A DNA stretch of 64,000 nucleotides from a virus (Duplodnaviria; Heunggongvirae; Uroviricota; Caudoviricetes). Made by a program: the position numbers and the translations under genes. The DNA is taken from positions 1-64,000 of IMG/VR virus record IMGVR_UViG_2724679293_000007; one strand, 5' to 3'. Positions 3,136 to 62,988 of the stretch are shown piece after piece; position 1 is the stretch's first letter, and each line of letters starts with the position of its first letter. Below the pieces are notes generated by a model. That model worked only from the letters and a program-made list of their open reading frames with translations, was not told where the DNA came from and did not search any database.

Positions 3136-3258
3136 ATGTCAAAAGTAAATGTTTTGATTTTTTCAGTAATTGTAGGTTTTGGTTTTTCTGCTGGAGTGCA
3201 TATTTATATTACGTGGGAAAAAATCATCAACTACGTATGGAGTTGTTTTATTAAGTGA
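3136..3258 (+). CDS. possible small membrane peptide (40 aa)
   Basis: ATG 3136 to TGA 3256-3258; MSKVNVLIFSVIVGFGFSAGVHIYITWEK.. single TM helix; AT-rich. Confidence 0.25.
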   Translation: MSKVNVLIFSVIVGFGFSAGVHIYITWEKIINYVWSCFIK

Positions 3259-3265
3259 GGTAAGT

Positions 3266-3559
3266 ATGTGGAGAGGTAATAGTCATGGCAAAAGCCAGAT
3301 GATACTTACCGAATATCAGTTTGACCATAAAACCAATAAATCACGTTCAGTATATTTGCTTCGGCACAATAGCCGCGTAAGGAATACCGTGCTGGAGCAA
3401 AATCTGACTGTTGAAATGGATAATTACGGGGGCTTCAAGCCAACAATTTCGCTTGATGATTTTCCTCGTGGTTTAAGCGAAAGAGAAGCAATGCTGAAAT
3501 TAGCAGAATGGCTACAAAGATTAAGCATTGCTATTGAAGATAACTGGTCTGAACCTTAA
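3266..3559 (+). CDS. hypothetical protein (97 aa)
   Basis: ORF 3179-3559 in track; start reassigned to in-frame ATG 3266 with GTGAGG RBS. Confidence 0.45.
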   Translation: MWRGNSHGKSQMILTEYQFDHKTNKSRSVYLLRHNSRVRNTVLEQNLTVEMDNYGGFKPTISLDDFPRGLSEREAMLKLAEWLQRLSIAIEDNWSEP

Positions 3560-42768: not shown

Positions 42769-43346
42769 TGACATTCAGAATGAGTGAACAATCACGGACC
42801 ATAAAAATTTATAATCTACTGGCTGGAACCAATGAGTTTATTGGTGAAGGTGATGCATACATTCCACCTCATACAGGTCTGCCTGCAAACAGTACCGATA
42901 TTGCCCCGCCAGATATTCCGGCTGGCTTCGTGGCCGTTTTCAACAGTGATGAGGCATCGTGGAATCTCGTTGAAGACCATCGGGGAAAAACCGTCTATGA
43001 CGTGGCTTCCGGCGACGCGTTATTTATTTCTGAACTTGGCCCATTACCGGAAAATGTCACCTGGTTATCCCCGGAAGGGGAGTTTCAGAAGTGGAACGGC
43101 ACAGCCTGGGTGAAAGATGCAGAAGCAGAAAAACTGTTCCGGATCCGGAAGGCGGAAGAAACAAAAAACAGCCTGATGCAGATGGCCAGTGAGCATATTG
43201 CGCCACTTCAGGATGCCGTAGATTTGGATATTGCGACGGAGGAAGAGGCATCGTTACTGACTGCATGGAAGACATATCGGGTATTGTTGAATCGTGTTGA
43301 TACAGCAGTAGCAGCGGATGTTGAGTGGCCAGTCGCCCCGCAATAA
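42768..43346 (+). CDS. U', alternative tail-fibre assembly chaperone
   Basis: 192 aa, Tfa-like C-terminus ([12 protein letters not shown]); start overlaps Sv' stop. Confidence 0.7.
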
Positions 43347-56805: not shown

Positions 56806-57873
56806 TCAAGCCTTAAGAGGCTTTGTGTATGTTCGTGTAATCCATCCAGTAATAAACTCGTCCCCTGATTTAACCTGCACGAAAAGCCATTGGCGATCTT
56901 TTTTATCTAAAACAGCCACTATAGTATTTTTGCCAATGCATTCAATCACCTCACTATTTATAGAAGGACTGACGTGTAATCTTACGTTCTCACCAGTTAT
57001 AAAACGAAAACCATTGAGATCTTCCCAACTAATTTCTTTGTTTTCTTTAATTAATTGTTGTTTTGATATTGGTTTATCCTCAAACAGAGATATAAAATAT
57101 GATTCTGCCTTGTGTATTCCCAGCAAGGTTTTCTCTTTTCCGTAATCAATAAAAGCACCAAACACAACTTGAGAAAATATAACCATTAGTAACCATTGCA
57201 GTGGATAAGGAAGCTCTTTAAATGAATCAACAAACTTTGAGCTAGGTTTATTTAATCCTTTATTTTGAACATTACTTTTGGTGTGTGATGTTTCAGTAGC
57301 ACCTTCAGCATAAGCCTGCGCAATAGATGAAATCCCCTGCTCTATTATTTGATGTAATGAAGCATTTCTTGTTCTAGCATAGTGATCTAGTACTTTCTTT
57401 ATGTCTTGGCTTACATCTGTTTTATAACTTGCACTTTGTTGTAATTCTTTAAGTATCGCTTGCATGTTATTTAAACCAGCTTGCTTATTAAGCACCTCAA
57501 GCTGTTTTCGTAATGGCATAGCTATTTCGGCCTGTTTCCTTAGCATTTGAATATATCTATTTGCGTCATGAGGGAAAAGAGCCTGAGTCTGTTTCTGTAA
57601 AATCGCGATATGTTCACGATACTTGCTGCCTATTCCAGCCAAGTTCGGCATACTAGCCAATTGTTTTCGAAGAGAGTTACTAATTACAGCTTGTCTATTC
57701 AATCTTGTCATATTTTGAAAAGAATGTTTTTCTATTCCTAATTGTTTTTGCAAGATCGCTACGTGATCTTTGTATGATGGAATGAGCACTGACTGTTTAT
57801 ACAGTAACTTCAACTCATTAGAATTAGTAATTTTTGTCATATTATTCCATTTATATAATAGAATATTACGCAA
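56806..57873 (-). CDS. membrane-anchored protein with internal repeats and C-terminal SH3b-like domain (355 aa), AT-rich
   Basis: Repeated HxAILQKQ / LRKQL segments, one TM helix (LQWLLMVIFSQVVFGAFIDY), C-terminal pattern like bacterial SH3 (GFRFITGENVRLHVSPS..WLFVQVKSGDEFITGWITRTY). Confidence 0.55.
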   Translation of the reverse strand: MRNILLYKWNNMTKITNSNELKLLYKQSVLIPSYKDHVAILQKQLGIEKHSFQNMTRLNRQAVISNSLRKQLASMPNLAGIGSKYREHIAILQKQTQALFPHDANRYIQMLRKQAEIAMPLRKQLEVLNKQAGLNNMQAILKELQQSASYKTDVSQDIKKVLDHYARTRNASLHQIIEQGISSIAQAYAEGATETSHTKSNVQNKGLNKPSSKFVDSFKELPYPLQWLLMVIFSQVVFGAFIDYGKEKTLLGIHKAESYFISLFEDKPISKQQLIKENKEISWEDLNGFRFITGENVRLHVSPSINSEVIECIGKNTIVAVLDKKDRQWLFVQVKSGDEFITGWITRTYTKPLKA

Positions 57874-57914
57874 CCAATGTTTTATTGATTGCGTTAATCT
57901 TTAACACAGAAAGA

Positions 57915-58391
57915 TCATTTGCCTCGTTTAATACATCCATCCATTTTGGCTTGTTGATACAACTTACTTAGCCCAGAAAGAGGGAATGTAGCAATTTTTT
58001 CATTATCAACATAAGCATCAATCATATTAGCATTTGAATCTGCTGCATCTTGCCAAAAGGCATACCACCAAGAATCTCCAACCATTGATCCAAGATTGCT
58101 AAAAGGATATTGCTCACCATCTATAGTTAATACTATTTTATTCTTGTCAGCATTATACTCTTTTTTATTATTCGACGAACTTAGCAACAAGCCTAAACTA
58201 CCTGCACTATCTGGTGAACCATACATGAATCCCATATCACATAAAAAACTTATCTTATCACCATTATGATTATGGATTGTATATTCTCTCCCCCCTCTCT
58301 CTTCAATTACATTCCATTGTAGAGGATCAATTTTTGCAAATGTTCCTGCTGAAACTAACGATACAAATAATAAAAACCATCTCATATTCAT
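57915..58391 (-). CDS. secreted/periplasmic protein with signal peptide (158 aa), AT-rich
   Basis: N-terminus MNMRWFLLFVSLVSAGTFA then charged mature region; two Cys. Confidence 0.55.
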   Translation of the reverse strand: MNMRWFLLFVSLVSAGTFAKIDPLQWNVIEERGGREYTIHNHNGDKISFLCDMGFMYGSPDSAGSLGLLLSSSNNKKEYNADKNKIVLTIDGEQYPFSNLGSMVGDSWWYAFWQDAADSNANMIDAYVDNEKIATFPLSGLSKLYQQAKMDGCIKRGK

Positions 58392-58413
58392 TCTTTTCGC
58401 TTCTTATCTGTAA

Positions 58414-58764
58414 TTATTCTGCAATATCATTTGCCCATTGCACGGCAGCAAAATGAGTACCCAAACCACTCAGGAAAGCAATTACCCCCAAAACAATACT
58501 TGCTGCTGTTGATTCAAACAAAGTACCAATACTATAGCCAATAGCTCCCCATACTAAGCTAAATACAATCATCAATGGTATTGCCAGAAATTTTATTCTT
58601 AAACTAAAAATCAGTCCAAGAAAAGAACCGCCAAAGGCCCACCATGATTTAGACATTAAACCTATCAGTATTGACAGAATTCCTATTTCAATAAAGAGAA
58701 TATTAGATTGCTCTTCATTGAATTTCGCATTTGTTACACCTTTACGAACATGTTCAGATGACAT
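58414..58764 (-). CDS. integral membrane protein (116 aa, about 3 TM helices), AT-rich
   Basis: Three hydrophobic segments; first gene of the three-gene minus-strand operon. Confidence 0.5.
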   Translation of the reverse strand: MSSEHVRKGVTNAKFNEEQSNILFIEIGILSILIGLMSKSWWAFGGSFLGLIFSLRIKFLAIPLMIVFSLVWGAIGYSIGTLFESTAASIVLGVIAFLSGLGTHFAAVQWANDIAE

Positions 58765-58910
58765 GATTAACTATCTCCTGCCACAGATAAAACGCCTTAA
58801 AATAACATTTTGTAGCATAAAGTTTCACCATGCAATGGTCAAAATCTTTGACCCATATCAATTAAACTCATACATTTTAGTTACCAGGGAAATAATTTAC
58901 ATGGTTGCAA

Positions 58911-58927
58911 GTTGCTCTAATTATTTT
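58911..58927 (+). promoter_or_regulatory. C1 operator (GTTGCTCTAATTATTTT), Op51-like
   Basis: 13/17 match; between divergent cargo operon and c4-icd-ant. Confidence 0.6.
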
Positions 58928-59125
58928 ATTTTTTTAGCTTCATATGCTACATTAACTTGCTTGCGTGCTAATGCATTTTCGGTTTATCCTAAACAGGCAT
59001 CTTAGTAAAACGGATGCCGGGATTGGAACCCCGGATAATGCAAAAGGCGACACAGACGCCAAAAGCGTCTTTTTTTGTGTCATGCCATCGCACAGCCATA
59101 CGTAGCACATAGCTCCGAGATCAAT

Positions 59126-59205
59126 GGTAGTGCTGGCTGGGCTGCCGAAAGGCAGGCCGGTTCCCTTTTGCGCCGGTAGTTCCAACCCAGTCAGTGCTAC
59201 CGCCA
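59126..59205 (+). ncRNA. c4: c4 antisense repressor RNA (immI), tRNA-like precursor
   Basis: About 77-80 nt; long terminal stem (59126-59141 pairs with 59186-59201) ending GCCA, internal GNRA hairpin CTGCC-GAAA-GGCAG, exposed GGUUCC elements complementary to GGAACC targets at 59021-59030 and 59211-59219. Confidence 0.55.
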
Positions 59206-59261
59206 TTGAGATTGGAACCTCACGCGGTAGCTCCTTAAATTAGCAAAAGGAGGCTGCCATT

Positions 59262-59483
59262 GTGGCTACTATCCCTACCCCTACTCATCCTGAATTTATC
59301 TGGCGCTTTTACTCCTGCCAAAAACACCACTATCACTTCGTTATCGCAGCAACAGAAGACGAAGCACGCTCTCAATTGCCTGATGGCCCCTGCATTTTTA
59401 CTGCCCGTTTTTCAACTAACTCGCGCAATTCACTTAGTTACTGGAACCTCCCCTTCTCTGCCGACGTTCAGGGGGGTTTATGA
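59262..59483 (+). CDS. icd: Icd (interference with cell division), 73 aa
   Basis: GTG start with AAGGAGG RBS; 73 codons overlapping ant start (ATGA), as recalled for P1. Confidence 0.55.
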   Translation: MATIPTPTHPEFIWRFYSCQKHHYHFVIAATEDEARSQLPDGPCIFTARFSTNSRNSLSYWNLPFSADVQGGL

Positions 59484-60523
59484 AAAAACCTCTCGTCACC
59501 CGGAATGAAATAGCCGAAGCGATCGCCCTGCATACTGCCTGTATGCCGACACGGGAGATCCCCGGCGCAATTGCCAACTATTTCATGATAACCAAGCGTT
59601 TTTATACCCGGATAGATAAGGCTGTGATCAACAGGCTACTGATAGCCGAGATCAGGGATTATTTGATTGAACAAGGACGTCTACGTTACGCAACAGTGGC
59701 AGCAGAAATGAGAAAGGAGGCACATAGAATGACCGGTAATAATTTGAATGTTGAAAAACCAGCACCTGTTGCTTCAGCTACGCCAGCACCAGCCGTGAAT
59801 GTCATCCCCAACACCGGAGACACAATCGACAGCCAAACATTGTTGAAGATGGTCAATGAGGCACGCAAGTTATGTGGAGAACCATTGGTTAGAAACAATA
59901 AATTCATCGAAAAAATACTCGACGAATTAGAAGGTGAGGACGGTTACACAAAAAGTGCAACCGTGCCGCCAGGTGGCGGTACGCCTATGGTTGTCATAAC
60001 CATGACCTACAAACAAGCCCTGCGAGTTGCCGCGCGCGAGTCAAAAGCGGTCCGCCGTTCGCTGATCGACAAACTGGAAGAATTGCAGCAGGCAAACTCC
60101 CCTGCCCCATCGATCCCCCAAACATTACCAGAAGCCCTACGCCTGGCTGCCGAGTTAGCAGAACAGAAAATGCAGTTGGAACAACAGCTGGTGGCCGCAG
60201 CCCCTAAAGTCGATTTTGCCGACCGGGTATCAGTGGCCAATGGAATCCTGATCGGGAACTTTGCAAAGGTCGTTGGACTTAAGCAAAACGCCCTTTTCTC
60301 ATGGTTGCGCCAGAACGGCATTCTCATGGCTTTTGGTGCGCGCAAAAACGTACCGCGCCAGCAGTACATTAATGCCGGGTATTTCACGGTGAAAGAAGTG
60401 GTGCTGGATGATGAAAATGGCTACCAGATACGGCTGACGCCCCAATTAACGGGTAAAGGCCAGCAGTGGTTAACTCGCAAGCTACTTGATGCTGGTTTGT
60501 TAAAACCAGTAGCAATAGGTTAA
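59480..60523 (+). CDS. ant: Ant antirepressor (Ant1), KilA-C/Ant C-terminal domain
   Basis: 347 aa; C-terminal 135 aa homologous to KilA C-terminus; downstream of c4 and icd. Confidence 0.75.
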   Translation: MKKPLVTRNEIAEAIALHTACMPTREIPGAIANYFMITKRFYTRIDKAVINRLLIAEIRDYLIEQGRLRYATVAAEMRKEAHRMTGNNLNVEKPAPVASATPAPAVNVIPNTGDTIDSQTLLKMVNEARKLCGEPLVRNNKFIEKILDELEGEDGYTKSATVPPGGGTPMVVITMTYKQALRVAARESKAVRRSLIDKLEELQQANSPAPSIPQTLPEALRLAAELAEQKMQLEQQLVAAAPKVDFADRVSVANGILIGNFAKVVGLKQNALFSWLRQNGILMAFGARKNVPRQQYINAGYFTVKEVVLDDENGYQIRLTPQLTGKGQQWLTRKLLDAGLLKPVAIG

Positions 60524-60600: not shown

Positions 60601-60617
60601 TTTGCTCTAATAAATTT
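60601..60617 (+). promoter_or_regulatory. C1 operator (TTTGCTCTAATAAATTT), Op53-like
   Basis: 16/17 match to consensus, 70 bp upstream of kilA. Confidence 0.7.
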
Positions 60618-60686: not shown

Positions 60687-61487
60687 ATGCAACAAACATT
60701 CAATGCGGATATGAATATATCAAACCTTCATCAAAATGTCGATCCTTCAACCACTCTGCCCGTTATTTGTGGTGTTGAAATTACGACCGACCGCGCTGGC
60801 CGTTACAACCTTAATGCTCTACACAGAGCGAGCGGACTCGGTGCCCATAAAGCGCCAGCTCAATGGCTAAGAACGCTGTCAGCTAAACAGCTCATCGAAG
60901 AGCTTGAAAAAGAAACTATGCAGAATTGCATAGTTTCGTTCGAAGGCCGTGGCGGCGGCACTTTTGCCCATGAATTGCTCGCTGTGGAGTACGCAGGCTG
61001 GATTTCTCCCGCGTTTCGGCTGAAGGTAAACCAGACATTTATCGACTATCGAGCTGGAAGATTACAACCTGCTATTCCGCAGAGTCTCCCTGAAGCTCTC
61101 CGTTTGGCTGCCGACCTGGCAGAGCAAAAGCAACGGCTGGAGCAAAAAATGCTTATGGATGCACCTAAAGTCGAATTCGCCGAACGCGTTGCTACCGCCA
61201 GCGGGGTTCTAATCGGCAACTATGCCAAAGTGCTCGGCCTGGGCCAAAACTATCTCTTCACCTGGTTGCGTGATAACGGAATTCTGATCGCAACCGGAGA
61301 ACGCAGGAACGTCCCCAAACAAGAATACATCTCCCGTGGGTATTTCCCCCTTAAAGAAACCGTGATCGATACAAGCAATGGAAGCAGGATTTCTTTCACG
61401 ACTCGTATAACCGGCAAAGGTCAGCAGTGGCTGATGAAGCGATTGCTTGATGCTGGTGTGCTGGTACCTGTCGCGGCAACGCGCTAA
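60687..61487 (+). CDS. kilA: KilA (KilA-N plus KilA-C domains)
   Basis: 266 aa; C1-operator controlled; precedes repL as in P1. Confidence 0.75.
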   Translation: MQQTFNADMNISNLHQNVDPSTTLPVICGVEITTDRAGRYNLNALHRASGLGAHKAPAQWLRTLSAKQLIEELEKETMQNCIVSFEGRGGGTFAHELLAVEYAGWISPAFRLKVNQTFIDYRAGRLQPAIPQSLPEALRLAADLAEQKQRLEQKMLMDAPKVEFAERVATASGVLIGNYAKVLGLGQNYLFTWLRDNGILIATGERRNVPKQEYISRGYFPLKETVIDTSNGSRISFTTRITGKGQQWLMKRLLDAGVLVPVAATR

Positions 61488-61516: not shown

Positions 61517-62362
61517 ATGCTGGCTAAAGTCACTTTCCTGAGCTGTATAACGATGAGCGATTTTACTTTTTCTGGCTATGAATTGGCCTGCTTTGTAACA
61601 CACTCCGGTCTATCCCGTAGCGCCGGGCATATCCTGTCGCAATGTGCAAATCTCGCGGCAACAACCAGTGAATACTTCATTCACAAGCCTCACCGCCTGA
61701 TCGCGGCAGAAACTGGTTATAGCCAATCAACCGTCGTTCGTGCATTCCGTGAAGCTGTAAACAAAGGAATCCTGTCTGTAGAGATTGTTATCGGCGATCA
61801 CCGTGAACGTCGCGCTAACCTGTACCGGTTTACACCATCCTTTTTGGCCTTCGCACAACAAGCCAAAAATGCGCTGATTGAAAGCAAATTAAAGATCTCT
61901 TCAGCGGCAACCAAGGTTAAAGCTGTTCTCGCTAAGACATTGGCTTTATTTAATTTTTTATCCACACCCCCATGTCAAAATGATACCCCCTCCCCCTGTC
62001 AGGATGACGTGGCAATAAAGAATAAGAAGTCACAAGTTAAAAAAACAAAAAGATCAGTTTCCGGCGGTGCCGGAACGAGCAGACTCAAAAAATTGACTTC
62101 ATGGATCGCTGAGGCAAAAGCAAAGGCTGACAATCTGCGGTTATCCAAAAAACGCGCTCAAAAACATGAGTTCAAGCAGAAAGTAGAGGCGGCAGCGCGG
62201 AAATATGCTTACCTGAAGAACAAGCGTTCTCCTGATATTTGCGGGATATCAAACTTCGATAATCTGCCGCATTGCATGACGGTAAACAAAGCTCTTAATG
62301 CGGTTTTAGCCAAAAATAAAGATAACGAACAATGGGGTATACCGGCAGGATTCAGAGGGTGA
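61517..62362 (+). CDS. repL: RepL, lytic replication initiator (oriL inside gene)
   Basis: 281 aa, size and position after kilA match recalled P1 RepL. Confidence 0.75.
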   Translation: MLAKVTFLSCITMSDFTFSGYELACFVTHSGLSRSAGHILSQCANLAATTSEYFIHKPHRLIAAETGYSQSTVVRAFREAVNKGILSVEIVIGDHRERRANLYRFTPSFLAFAQQAKNALIESKLKISSAATKVKAVLAKTLALFNFLSTPPCQNDTPSPCQDDVAIKNKKSQVKKTKRSVSGGAGTSRLKKLTSWIAEAKAKADNLRLSKKRAQKHEFKQKVEAAARKYAYLKNKRSPDICGISNFDNLPHCMTVNKALNAVLAKNKDNEQWGIPAGFRG

Positions 62363-62658: not shown

Positions 62659-62781
62659 TACAATCGTTGCGGGTGCTTGAGGCTATCTGCTTCAGGCATG
62701 ACCCGAAAAGCAGATAGAAGAAAGCCCCAGATAACATTACGCGTCCTGCAAGACGCTTAACATTAATCTGAGGCCATATCT

Positions 62782-62988
62782 ATGCTTAGCATACGTAGAT
62801 TAGCCTCTTACCGACCAAAAGGTCAAGGAGAAGCAGGCTATGAAGCAGCAAAAAGCGATGTTAATCGCTCTGATCGTCATCTGTTTAACCGTCATTGTGA
62901 CGGCACTGGTAACGAGGAAAGACCTCTGCGAGGTACGAATCCGAACCGGCCAGACGGAGGTCACTGTCTTCACAGCCTACGAATCTGA
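62782..62988 (+). CDS. mok: mok-like overlapping reading frame (modulator of killing)
   Basis: 68-aa frame starting upstream of hok and overlapping it out of frame, the arrangement of hok/sok loci. Confidence 0.35.
   Translation: MLSIRRLASYRPKGQGEAGYEAAKSDVNRSDRHLFNRHCDGTGNEERPLRGTNPNRPDGGHCLHSLRI

Follow-up and report, generated by a model that had tools for sequence, protein, structure and literature searches.

A predicted c4 antisense repressor RNA gene from a P1-like plasmid prophage's immI operon

The stretch of DNA analysed here (the window) comprises the first 64,000 nucleotides of the virus record IMGVR_UViG_2724679293_000007, and the element of interest is a short segment on its plus strand, at positions 59126-59205, which very probably encodes c4, the antisense repressor RNA that belongs to the immI operon in a P1-like plasmid prophage. 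The operon of the window reads, in order, C1 operator, leader, c4, icd, ant1/2, kilA and repL, and this layout agrees with the annotation of phage P1, where Oc4, a1, b1, c4, a2, b2, icd, ant1 and ant2 follow one another. Because the immI gene set lies downstream of c4 and nine C1-operator-like sites occur in the window, against 0.33 expected, the 64 kb are by their gene content a P1-like plasmid prophage and c4 falls within its immI region. The 721 bases around c4 are 100% identical to an Escherichia coli IncY plasmid of 97.7 kb (CP099272.1), and 49 plasmid records span at least 80% of the same stretch. Of 5,426 complete E. coli genomes, 303 carry the cassette family at 90% identity or more, and nearly all of these copies lie on plasmids. 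Related leader-c4 modules are also present in 264 phage records, mostly of Stx-converting phages, and some of these records annotate isrK and C4.

The Rfam C4 model (RF01695) covers 59120-59207 on the plus strand over its full length (1-87) with 76.7 bits and E = 3e-13, the gathering score being 45 bits, and the segment sits upstream of an anti-repressor gene, a position by which members of the C4 family are recognised. A covariance model of our own, built from four sequences, gave 101.6 bits on the plus strand versus 13.8 bits on the minus strand and found no second c4 copy in the window. The original prediction, made from the letters of the sequence without database searches, had named a repressor of the P1/P7 type at this place, and the score, the strand and the immI context bear this out. 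With its ends placed by alignment with the annotated 77-nucleotide (nt) c4 of P1 and P7, the predicted mature RNA would be 80 nt long. Its terminal stem has 16 base pairs (59126-59141 with 59186-59201), three of them G-U, and is followed by an unpaired GCCA (59202-59205); inside the stem lie a first hairpin, CUGCC-GAAA-GGCAG, then a second hairpin and an 8-nt linker. Both the long stem ending in GCCA and the GNRA-capped hairpin had been foreseen, and they are recovered in a fold of -46.4 kcal/mol (z = -5.4) that none of 200 shuffled sequences equalled. Tetraloops of the GNRA or UNCG kind are common in the C4 family, the window c4 having GAAA.

To collect homologues, viral contigs were scanned with a pattern and then searched with our own model, which yielded at least 75 c4 genes, at least 57 of them distinct; the family counts given from here on hold among the matches listed. 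In the alignment of the 57 distinct homologues 97.8% of the cells form standard pairs and 20 of the 27 pairs have changed on both sides. None of 500 shuffles reached such values, and pairing drops to 31-55% when the partner columns are slid. Because the pairing and the two-sided changes exceed both controls, the c4 fold is, on this alignment, a conserved RNA structure. The length of the homologues ranges from 80 to 91 nt, and the terminal stem with RCCA, which resembles a substrate of RNase P, is conserved across the family.

Two short recognition boxes are exposed by this fold, and each has two complements on the same strand of the operon. The a' box GUUCCAA (59179-59185) lies in the single-stranded linker, with a probability of 1.00 of being unpaired, and the b' box CCUUUUGC (59164-59171), which sits in the hairpin 2 loop, is unpaired with a probability of 0.87. 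Downstream of c4 the target box a2, UUGGAAC (59212-59218), is complementary to a' at 7 of 7 positions, and the target box b2, GCAAAAGG (59243-59250), is complementary to b' at 8 of 8 and overlaps the Shine-Dalgarno sequence of icd. The same sequences stand upstream of c4 as the a1 box (59023-59029; complement of a', unpaired with a probability of 0.99) and the b1 box (59040-59047), which again matches b' at 8 of 8 positions. The window holds just two copies of the 10-mer GATTGGAACC (59021-59030 and 59210-59219), versus 0.14 copies expected; these are the GGAACC boxes on either side of c4, the first of them in the loop of a CCGGG/CCCGG hairpin, that the original prediction had pointed out. Its description of the c4 side does need correction. 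Of the two exposed GGUUCC tracts that it gave, the first (59159-59164), whose mean unpaired probability is 0.40, contributes its GGU to the stem of hairpin 2, and the second reads AGUUCC, the truly complementary box being GUUCCAA. The second recognition pair, b' with b2 and b1, had been overlooked.

Complementarity at the level of the boxes, at homologous positions, was counted over 56 distinct loci. A perfect complement of a' of at least 7 nt lies 0-6 nt after c4, as a2, in 53 of the 56 loci; in 49, b' is perfectly complementary over at least 7 nt to a stretch some 30-38 nt past c4, as b2 over the Shine-Dalgarno sequence; and 48 have a matching a1 of at least 7 nt. The non-cognate control, which used the flanks of loci of other types, gave complements of at least 7 nt in 5.6% (a2) and 2.8% (b2) of the cases. 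Complementarity, which could have been lost on alignment with c4 homologues, is therefore kept through compensatory changes. This is apparent in a four-way alignment, in which a'/a2 read GUUCCAA/UUGGAAC in the window, GUCUCAA/UUGAGAC in phage D6, GUCCUAA/UUAGGAC in the Stx phage F039 and CUGUCAA/UUGACAG in P1. The corresponding b'/b2 pairs are CCUUUUGC/GCAAAAGG in the window, CCUUGAUUG/CAAUCAAGG in F039 and UCACUAAC/GUUAGUGA in P1. Phage P7 has a' CUGCUAA with a2 UUAGCAG, and b' UCACAAUC, and its targets match. The first of the two tracts just mentioned belongs to a motif, GGUUYCC, that is constant in the C4 family irrespective of the target and shows no covariation with it. RNAduplex energies of the whole c4 against the whole target or leader of the window, P1, P7, D6 and F039 did not separate cognate from non-cognate combinations; the program unfolds the c4 stem. 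Family membership, structure, complementarity with covariation and gene context are thus established here for c4.

The boxes are highly diverse, the 56 loci holding at least 17 a' heptamers, at least 37 b' loops and at least 49 combinations of the two. The a' of the window is a common type and occurs with seven different b' loops. That the recognition sequences define immI specificity, as had been proposed for this locus, fits these data, since P1, P7, D6 and the window each have a different a'/b' pair. P7 is the classical heteroimmune partner of P1 and differs from it in the a'/b' boxes. By analogy the a'/b' pair would set immunity specificity here as well, and since neither P1 nor P7 has the pair of the window, heteroimmunity to both phages would be expected at immI, a prediction that also draws on the box differences from D6. 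Some phages have two or three c4 genes, and the a'/b' pairs differ between the copies in every such contig among the matches listed. These are RCS47 (contig L126, c4 at 3214-3301), D6 (L002, c4 at 774-853 and 1325-1412), L042, L009, L021, L023 and L037. In L042 the three c4 genes have the a' boxes GUUCCAA, CUGCGAA and ACGCCAA, each with a different loop, and D6 has an extra weak c4-like match (44.6 bits) upstream of its second module. The differing pairs fit the idea of orthogonal regulators within one genome.

The upstream boxes belong to a terminated leader RNA of the IsrK family (58997-59076, plus strand), which is the equivalent of the a1/b1 element of c4. The Rfam isrK model (RF01394) matches 58997-59075 over its full length (1-77) with 58.5 bits, against a gathering score of 50. 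The leader consists of two hairpins, the second with a1 in its loop, a single-stranded stretch with b1 and then an intrinsic terminator. The second hairpin is the CCGGG/CCCGG one (59017-59034, plus strand), whose 8-nt loop AUUGGAAC displays a1 both in the fold and in the consensus structures of isrK and c4-a1b1. The terminator, AGACGC-CAAAA-GCGUCU followed by U7 (59054-59076, plus strand), was found by a terminator scan and is the 3' hairpin of the isrK model. Of the features that bear on Hfq binding, by which the IsrK family is named in Rfam, the U7 tail and the A/U-rich single strands are visible in the sequence itself, and the terminator, followed by a c4-like segment and an anti-repressor gene, fits the IsrK layout.

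The Rfam model of the a1/b1 motif, c4-a1b1 (RF03163), aligns to the same two hairpins (58984-59037) but gives 18.1 bits versus a gathering score of 46.7, whereas the P1 leader (L001, 921-1015) scores in the reverse way, with 51 bits for c4-a1b1 and 35.1 bits for isrK. Because both models align to the same hairpins with reciprocal scores in the window and in P1, the isrK and c4-a1b1 families are, as judged from these models, one element in two sequence branches. The leader of the window would then work like the c4-a1b1 motif but belong to the isrK branch. The P1 leader too ends in a terminator-like hairpin followed by a run of U. In Rfam, isrK stands outside the C4 clan and c4-a1b1 inside it (CL00128).

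The working of the operon can be proposed on the model of P1, P7 and Gifsy-1, from whose experiments the processing, the translational block, the polarity and the decoy role of the leader would carry over. Transcription would begin behind the C1 operator, and its first product would be the leader with a1 and b1, ending at the intrinsic terminator; read-through transcripts would extend into c4, a2, b2, icd and ant1/ant2. The c4 RNA would be excised from this precursor, with RNase P generating the 5' end at U59125/G59126, and the long terminal stem with GCCA would mimic the acceptor end of a tRNA. A statement in PMC2190699, citing Hartmann 1995, has c4 as an RNase P substrate in P1 and P7, and we infer similar processing here, with which the acceptor-like stem and GCCA are consistent. 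The mature RNA of about 80 nt would expose a' and b' and pair with a2 and b2 on the mRNA. Because b2 overlaps the Shine-Dalgarno sequence of icd, c4 bound to b2 would block icd translation, and because ant1 starts within the icd stop (ATGA), ant1 would be translationally coupled to icd and depend on its translation. The untranslated mRNA would also terminate prematurely, as in P1, so that no anti-repressor would be made and C1 repression would be maintained. Full block of ant by c4 has been described (PMC8198154).

The leader, carrying a1 and b1, would compete with a2 and b2 for c4, and it is probably a decoy for this RNA. To our knowledge the role of the a1/b1 sites has remained a proposal since 1990. 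Competition of a1/b1 with a2/b2 for c4 is the original proposal as it appears in the supplement of Weinberg et al. (PMC2864571). In Gifsy-1 a short IsrK acting in trans raises the translation of the anti-repressor AnrP more than 100-fold, and the segment downstream of IsrK, treated as orf45, gives rise to a stable processed RNA, STnc1160 (PMC4825925). The authors of that paper liken the locus to CI/seqA of P4, not to P1 c4, and a 2025 review still has IsrK and c4 as separate RNAs. Gifsy-1 itself was not seen among the phage matches listed. When the Gifsy-1 mutant pairs IsrK G28A/C162U and G31A/C159U are compared with the IsrK-type locus L006, its a1 spans U26-U32 with G at 28 and 31, and the partner C residues in its a' are 3 nt apart as required, but at 165 and 162, not 162 and 159. 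The mapping of the mutations onto a1 and a' is not exact and is suggestive only.

These likenesses lead to a wider reading, which we find plausible if somewhat short of probable. In it immI would be a three-RNA circuit in which the IsrK-type leader sponges c4, and isrK, c4-a1b1, IsrK/orf45/STnc1160 of Gifsy-1 and a1b1/c4 of P1 would all be one module. An alternative hairpin would make the accessibility of a2 depend on the excision of c4, and the ratio of leader to c4 would set the output of anti-repressor. If true, this circuit gives the a1/b1 sites a function.

The alternative hairpin (59196-59231, plus strand) is formed by the c4 3' strand GCUACCGC, the last 8 nt of the terminal stem, with its perfect complement GCGGUAGC (59224-59231), and an inner UGAG/CUCA stem closes an 8-nt loop that contains a2. 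In 24 homologues of the same register, which were picked by that register so that some selection bias is possible, 90.6% of the cells are paired and 8 of the 12 pairs have changed on both sides. Such values were reached by 0 of 500 shuffles, and slid columns were 34-49% paired. The order a', c4 3' strand, a2 and downstream partner is that of an H-type pseudoknot. Three look-alike segments, GUAGCACAUAGCUCC (59101-59116), GGUAGUGCUGGCU (59124-59140) and GCGGUAGCUCC (59224-59234), are each capable of pairing with the c4 3' strand; two copies of TAGCTCC stand at 59110 and 59228. They may be the trace of a duplication that created a1/b1 and a2/b2, or they may provide extra alternative pairings in the precursor.

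Several observations weigh against the explanation given above. The b1 box is less consistently complementary than the others, with at least 7 nt in 31 of the 56 loci, and the frequencies of the box types among the matches listed are not representative of the family. The processing sites of c4 are putative, alignment with P1 and P7 being the sole basis for them. The fold predicted for the precursor partly masks a2 (unpaired probability 0.27) and places the icd Shine-Dalgarno sequence in a local hairpin (0.15); because both are masked in this model, repression could act partly in cis, through structure. The local hairpin over the Shine-Dalgarno sequence was itself dropped as a feature, as it is not conserved in F039 or P1 by eye.

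The strongest rival to the antisense repressor follows the IsrK model of Gifsy-1. The c4-like segment would act mainly in cis within the read-through mRNA, where alternative structures of the leader-c4-target RNA would hold the downstream genes in a translationally silent state, the short leader would be an activator in trans and not a repressor, and any diffusible c4 would be secondary. It draws on a leader that scores above the Rfam isrK threshold and on the finding that in Gifsy-1 the read-through transcript is translationally inactive and is activated in trans by short IsrK, with compensatory mutations between IsrK and the orf45 region supporting their pairing (PMC4825925). The conserved alternative hairpin, which the c4 3' strand and the downstream segment form around a2, points the same way, as does the capacity of the c4 flanks to pair together and partly mask a2 in the precursor. 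Nevertheless c4 of P1 and P7 is annotated as a 77-nt RNA acting on targets in the icd-ant mRNA, the Gifsy-1 paper itself detects the stable processed STnc1160 (PMC4825925), and the family-wide terminal stem with RCCA, so like an RNase P substrate, argues for release of the RNA. We therefore consider a mainly cis-acting segment unlikely. The two modes are not mutually exclusive, and an action in cis is possible as an added layer.

A second rival takes the annotation of the segment at face value, since RefSeq and GenBank label it as a coding sequence for an "ash family protein" and show no non-coding RNA feature. Positions 59124-59243 (plus strand) would then encode a protein of 39 amino acids (aa) and not an RNA regulator. 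Its translation does match Pfam Phage_ASH (PF10554) with 33 bits, the cut-off being 26, PGAP calls the coding sequence in about 300 E. coli genomes, and the start codons of orf45 matter for anrP translation in Gifsy-1 (PMC4825925). Moreover, the frame is open through c4 in all the variants listed of the 88-nt class, except two with a stop at the very end of c4. However, across the 57 variants listed the open reading frame from the c4 AUG spans from 12 to more than 130 codons, with P1 reaching a stop after 14, and the c4 lengths differ by non-multiples of three. Substitutions restore pairing in the stems instead of being synonymous. The AUG, at the base of the 16-bp stem, straddles the cleavage site predicted for RNase P, and upstream of it only a weak GAG stands at the Shine-Dalgarno position. 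A protein gene is very improbable on this evidence, and the best reading of the frame is that gene callers have translated an RNA gene. Because the frame is not conserved across c4 variants, the Ash protein family appears to derive, in part at least, from c4-type RNA genes that were translated.

A degenerate tRNA gene, a tRNA-like attachment remnant or chance complementarities deserve next to no credence, for although the long stem with GCCA looks acceptor-like and 64 kb are enough for a lone 7-nt box to turn up again by chance, ARAGORN reports neither a tRNA nor a tmRNA gene in 58000-60000, the Rfam C4 match has the E value given above, boxes and targets covary in the 56 loci, where their positions are fixed, and the 10-mer is confined to the two target sites.

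Returning to the c4 operon, its control region begins with an operator-like site for the C1 repressor, GTTGCTCTAATTATTTT (58911-58927, plus strand), with 3 mismatches to the P1 consensus ATTGCTCTAATAAATTT. This is the Op51-like operator that had been noticed upstream of c4, and its position is equivalent to Oc4 of P1 and Op(c4) of P7. The window has eight further sites that resemble the C1 operator and deviate from the P1 consensus by 1-3 mismatches, at 60601-60617, 9725, 13998, 14462, 14545, 16582, 26377 and 30227; the one at 60601-60617 precedes the kilA-like gene, as Op53 does in P1. A candidate leader promoter, the counterpart of P1c4/P51b, is proposed at 58961-58990 (plus strand), with -35 TTGCGT (58961-58966), an 18-nt spacer and -10 TATCCT (58985-58990). 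Its TTG and TAT cores are invariant in the window, RCS47, D6 and F039, and the sequence farther upstream has diverged. A scan for sigma-70 promoters gave weak candidates only; the promoter reported here is the one pointed to by conservation in these four sequences. Transcription probably starts near 58997, to which position 1 of the isrK model aligns and where the similarity to D6 and the Stx phages begins.

Overlapping b2, the icd Shine-Dalgarno sequence AAGGAGG, as read from the sequence (plus strand), lies 8 nt upstream of the GTG at 59262. The original prediction had the right motif but placed it at 59246-59252, the actual position being 59247-59253. The icd gene (59262-59483, plus strand), putatively the first under c4 control, starts with this GTG, whereas D6, RCS47 and F039 have ATG; it encodes 73 aa, and from residue 8 onward the product shares 97% identity with P1 Icd. 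The ant1 gene (59480-60523, plus strand) overlaps the icd stop at ATGA (59480-59483) and encodes 347 aa with a Pfam ANT/KilAC match of 106 bits, its DNA being 95.8% identical to P1. As in the P1 annotation of ant1 and ant2, ant2 would use an in-frame start inside ant1, at 59729 on the same strand. A kilA-like gene (60687-61487) and repL (61517-62362) follow.

Upstream of immI, where P1 carries simABC, the minus strand of the window has three unrelated genes (56806-58764). They encode a 116-aa protein without a Pfam hit, hydrophobic by eye (58414-58764), a 158-aa protein with an N-terminus that is signal-peptide-like by eye (57915-58391) and a protein annotated as SH3-domain-containing (56806-57873). 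Elsewhere in the window Rfam recognises, on the plus strand, an IS009 RNA (43111-43309, 192.7 bits) and a sok antitoxin RNA of the hok/sok type (62671-62845, 113.9 bits).

The c4 RNA of the window is a regulator of a well-known kind, and what is new are its uncharacterised a'/b' pair and the mosaic immI region in which it lies. The pair GUUCCAA with CCUUUUGC would represent an immI specificity distinct from those of P1 and P7. This bears on the question of which P1-like phage-plasmids, frequent carriers of resistance genes, exclude or coexist with each other. With its many box combinations the family looks like a natural set of orthogonal RNA repressors. The "ash family protein" label on c4 in RefSeq is a systematic annotation error worth correcting. 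The equivalence of the isrK family with the a1/b1 element, if it holds, links the literature on P1 immunity with that on small RNAs of Salmonella and enterohaemorrhagic E. coli prophages, and makes the old decoy hypothesis directly testable. The practical value is modest.

Among the known systems P1 is the obvious reference. Its operon has the order of the window, from the C1 operator through a1, b1, c4, a2, b2, icd and ant1/ant2 to kilA and repL, and its c4 shares the three-helix fold, with a' in the linker, b' in the hairpin 2 loop and b2 covering the ribosome-binding site of icd. Between P1 and the window, icd (from codon 8) and ant1 share 96-97% identity, whereas the leader-c4-target cassette is too diverged for blastn; P1 aligns to this part of the window only from 59289 onward, with 95.8% DNA identity. 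The boxes differ (CUGUCAA and UCACUAAC in P1), as do the length of c4 (80 nt in the window versus 77 nt in P1), the loop of the first hairpin (GAAA versus UUCG) and the 3' tail (GCCA versus ACC). P7 c4 has the same architecture and context with boxes of its own, CUGCUAA and UCACAAUC, and its cassette is 94% identical to that of P1, unlike that of the window.

The closest relatives of the cassette are the second c4-icd-ant modules of D6, RCS47 and JL22, with 86-88% identity from 58912 (or 58997) to about 59288 and a leader of the isrK type as in the window. The b' of D6 is identical to that of the window, RCS47 has CCUUUGAC instead, and both have the a' GUCUCAA where the window has GUUCCAA. In D6, RCS47 and JL22 this module stands at a second locus, besides a P1-type c4 at immI, and in RCS47 it is found between pacB and c1, before a different ant gene; in the window the cassette occupies immI itself and its c4 is the sole one. 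A mosaic junction lies inside icd: the DNA from 58912 to 59288, including the first 7 icd codons, is of the second-module type of D6, RCS47 and JL22, and from 59289 onward it is of the P1 type with 96-97% identity. From these alignments the window is a mosaic, in which a cassette of the second-module type has replaced the P1-type one at immI.

IsrK/orf45(STnc1160)/AnrP of Gifsy-1 and the isrK-C4 pairs of Stx phages resemble the window in having a terminated leader of the IsrK family that immediately precedes a C4-family RNA and an anti-repressor gene. The leader boxes are likewise complementary to the c4-like segment, and short IsrK de-represses the anti-repressor. They differ in being lambdoid prophages without a C1 operator, with a Rha/AnrP-type anti-repressor downstream and no icd, and the published model for Gifsy-1 takes the c4-like segment as a cis-acting open reading frame (orf45). 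The CI RNA of the satellite phage P4 with seqA/seqC, as described in PMC4825925, is also an immunity RNA that is cut from a leader and pairs with sequences on both sides of itself, but what it is reported to bring about is that transcription of the replication genes terminates prematurely, and not a block of the ribosome-binding site.

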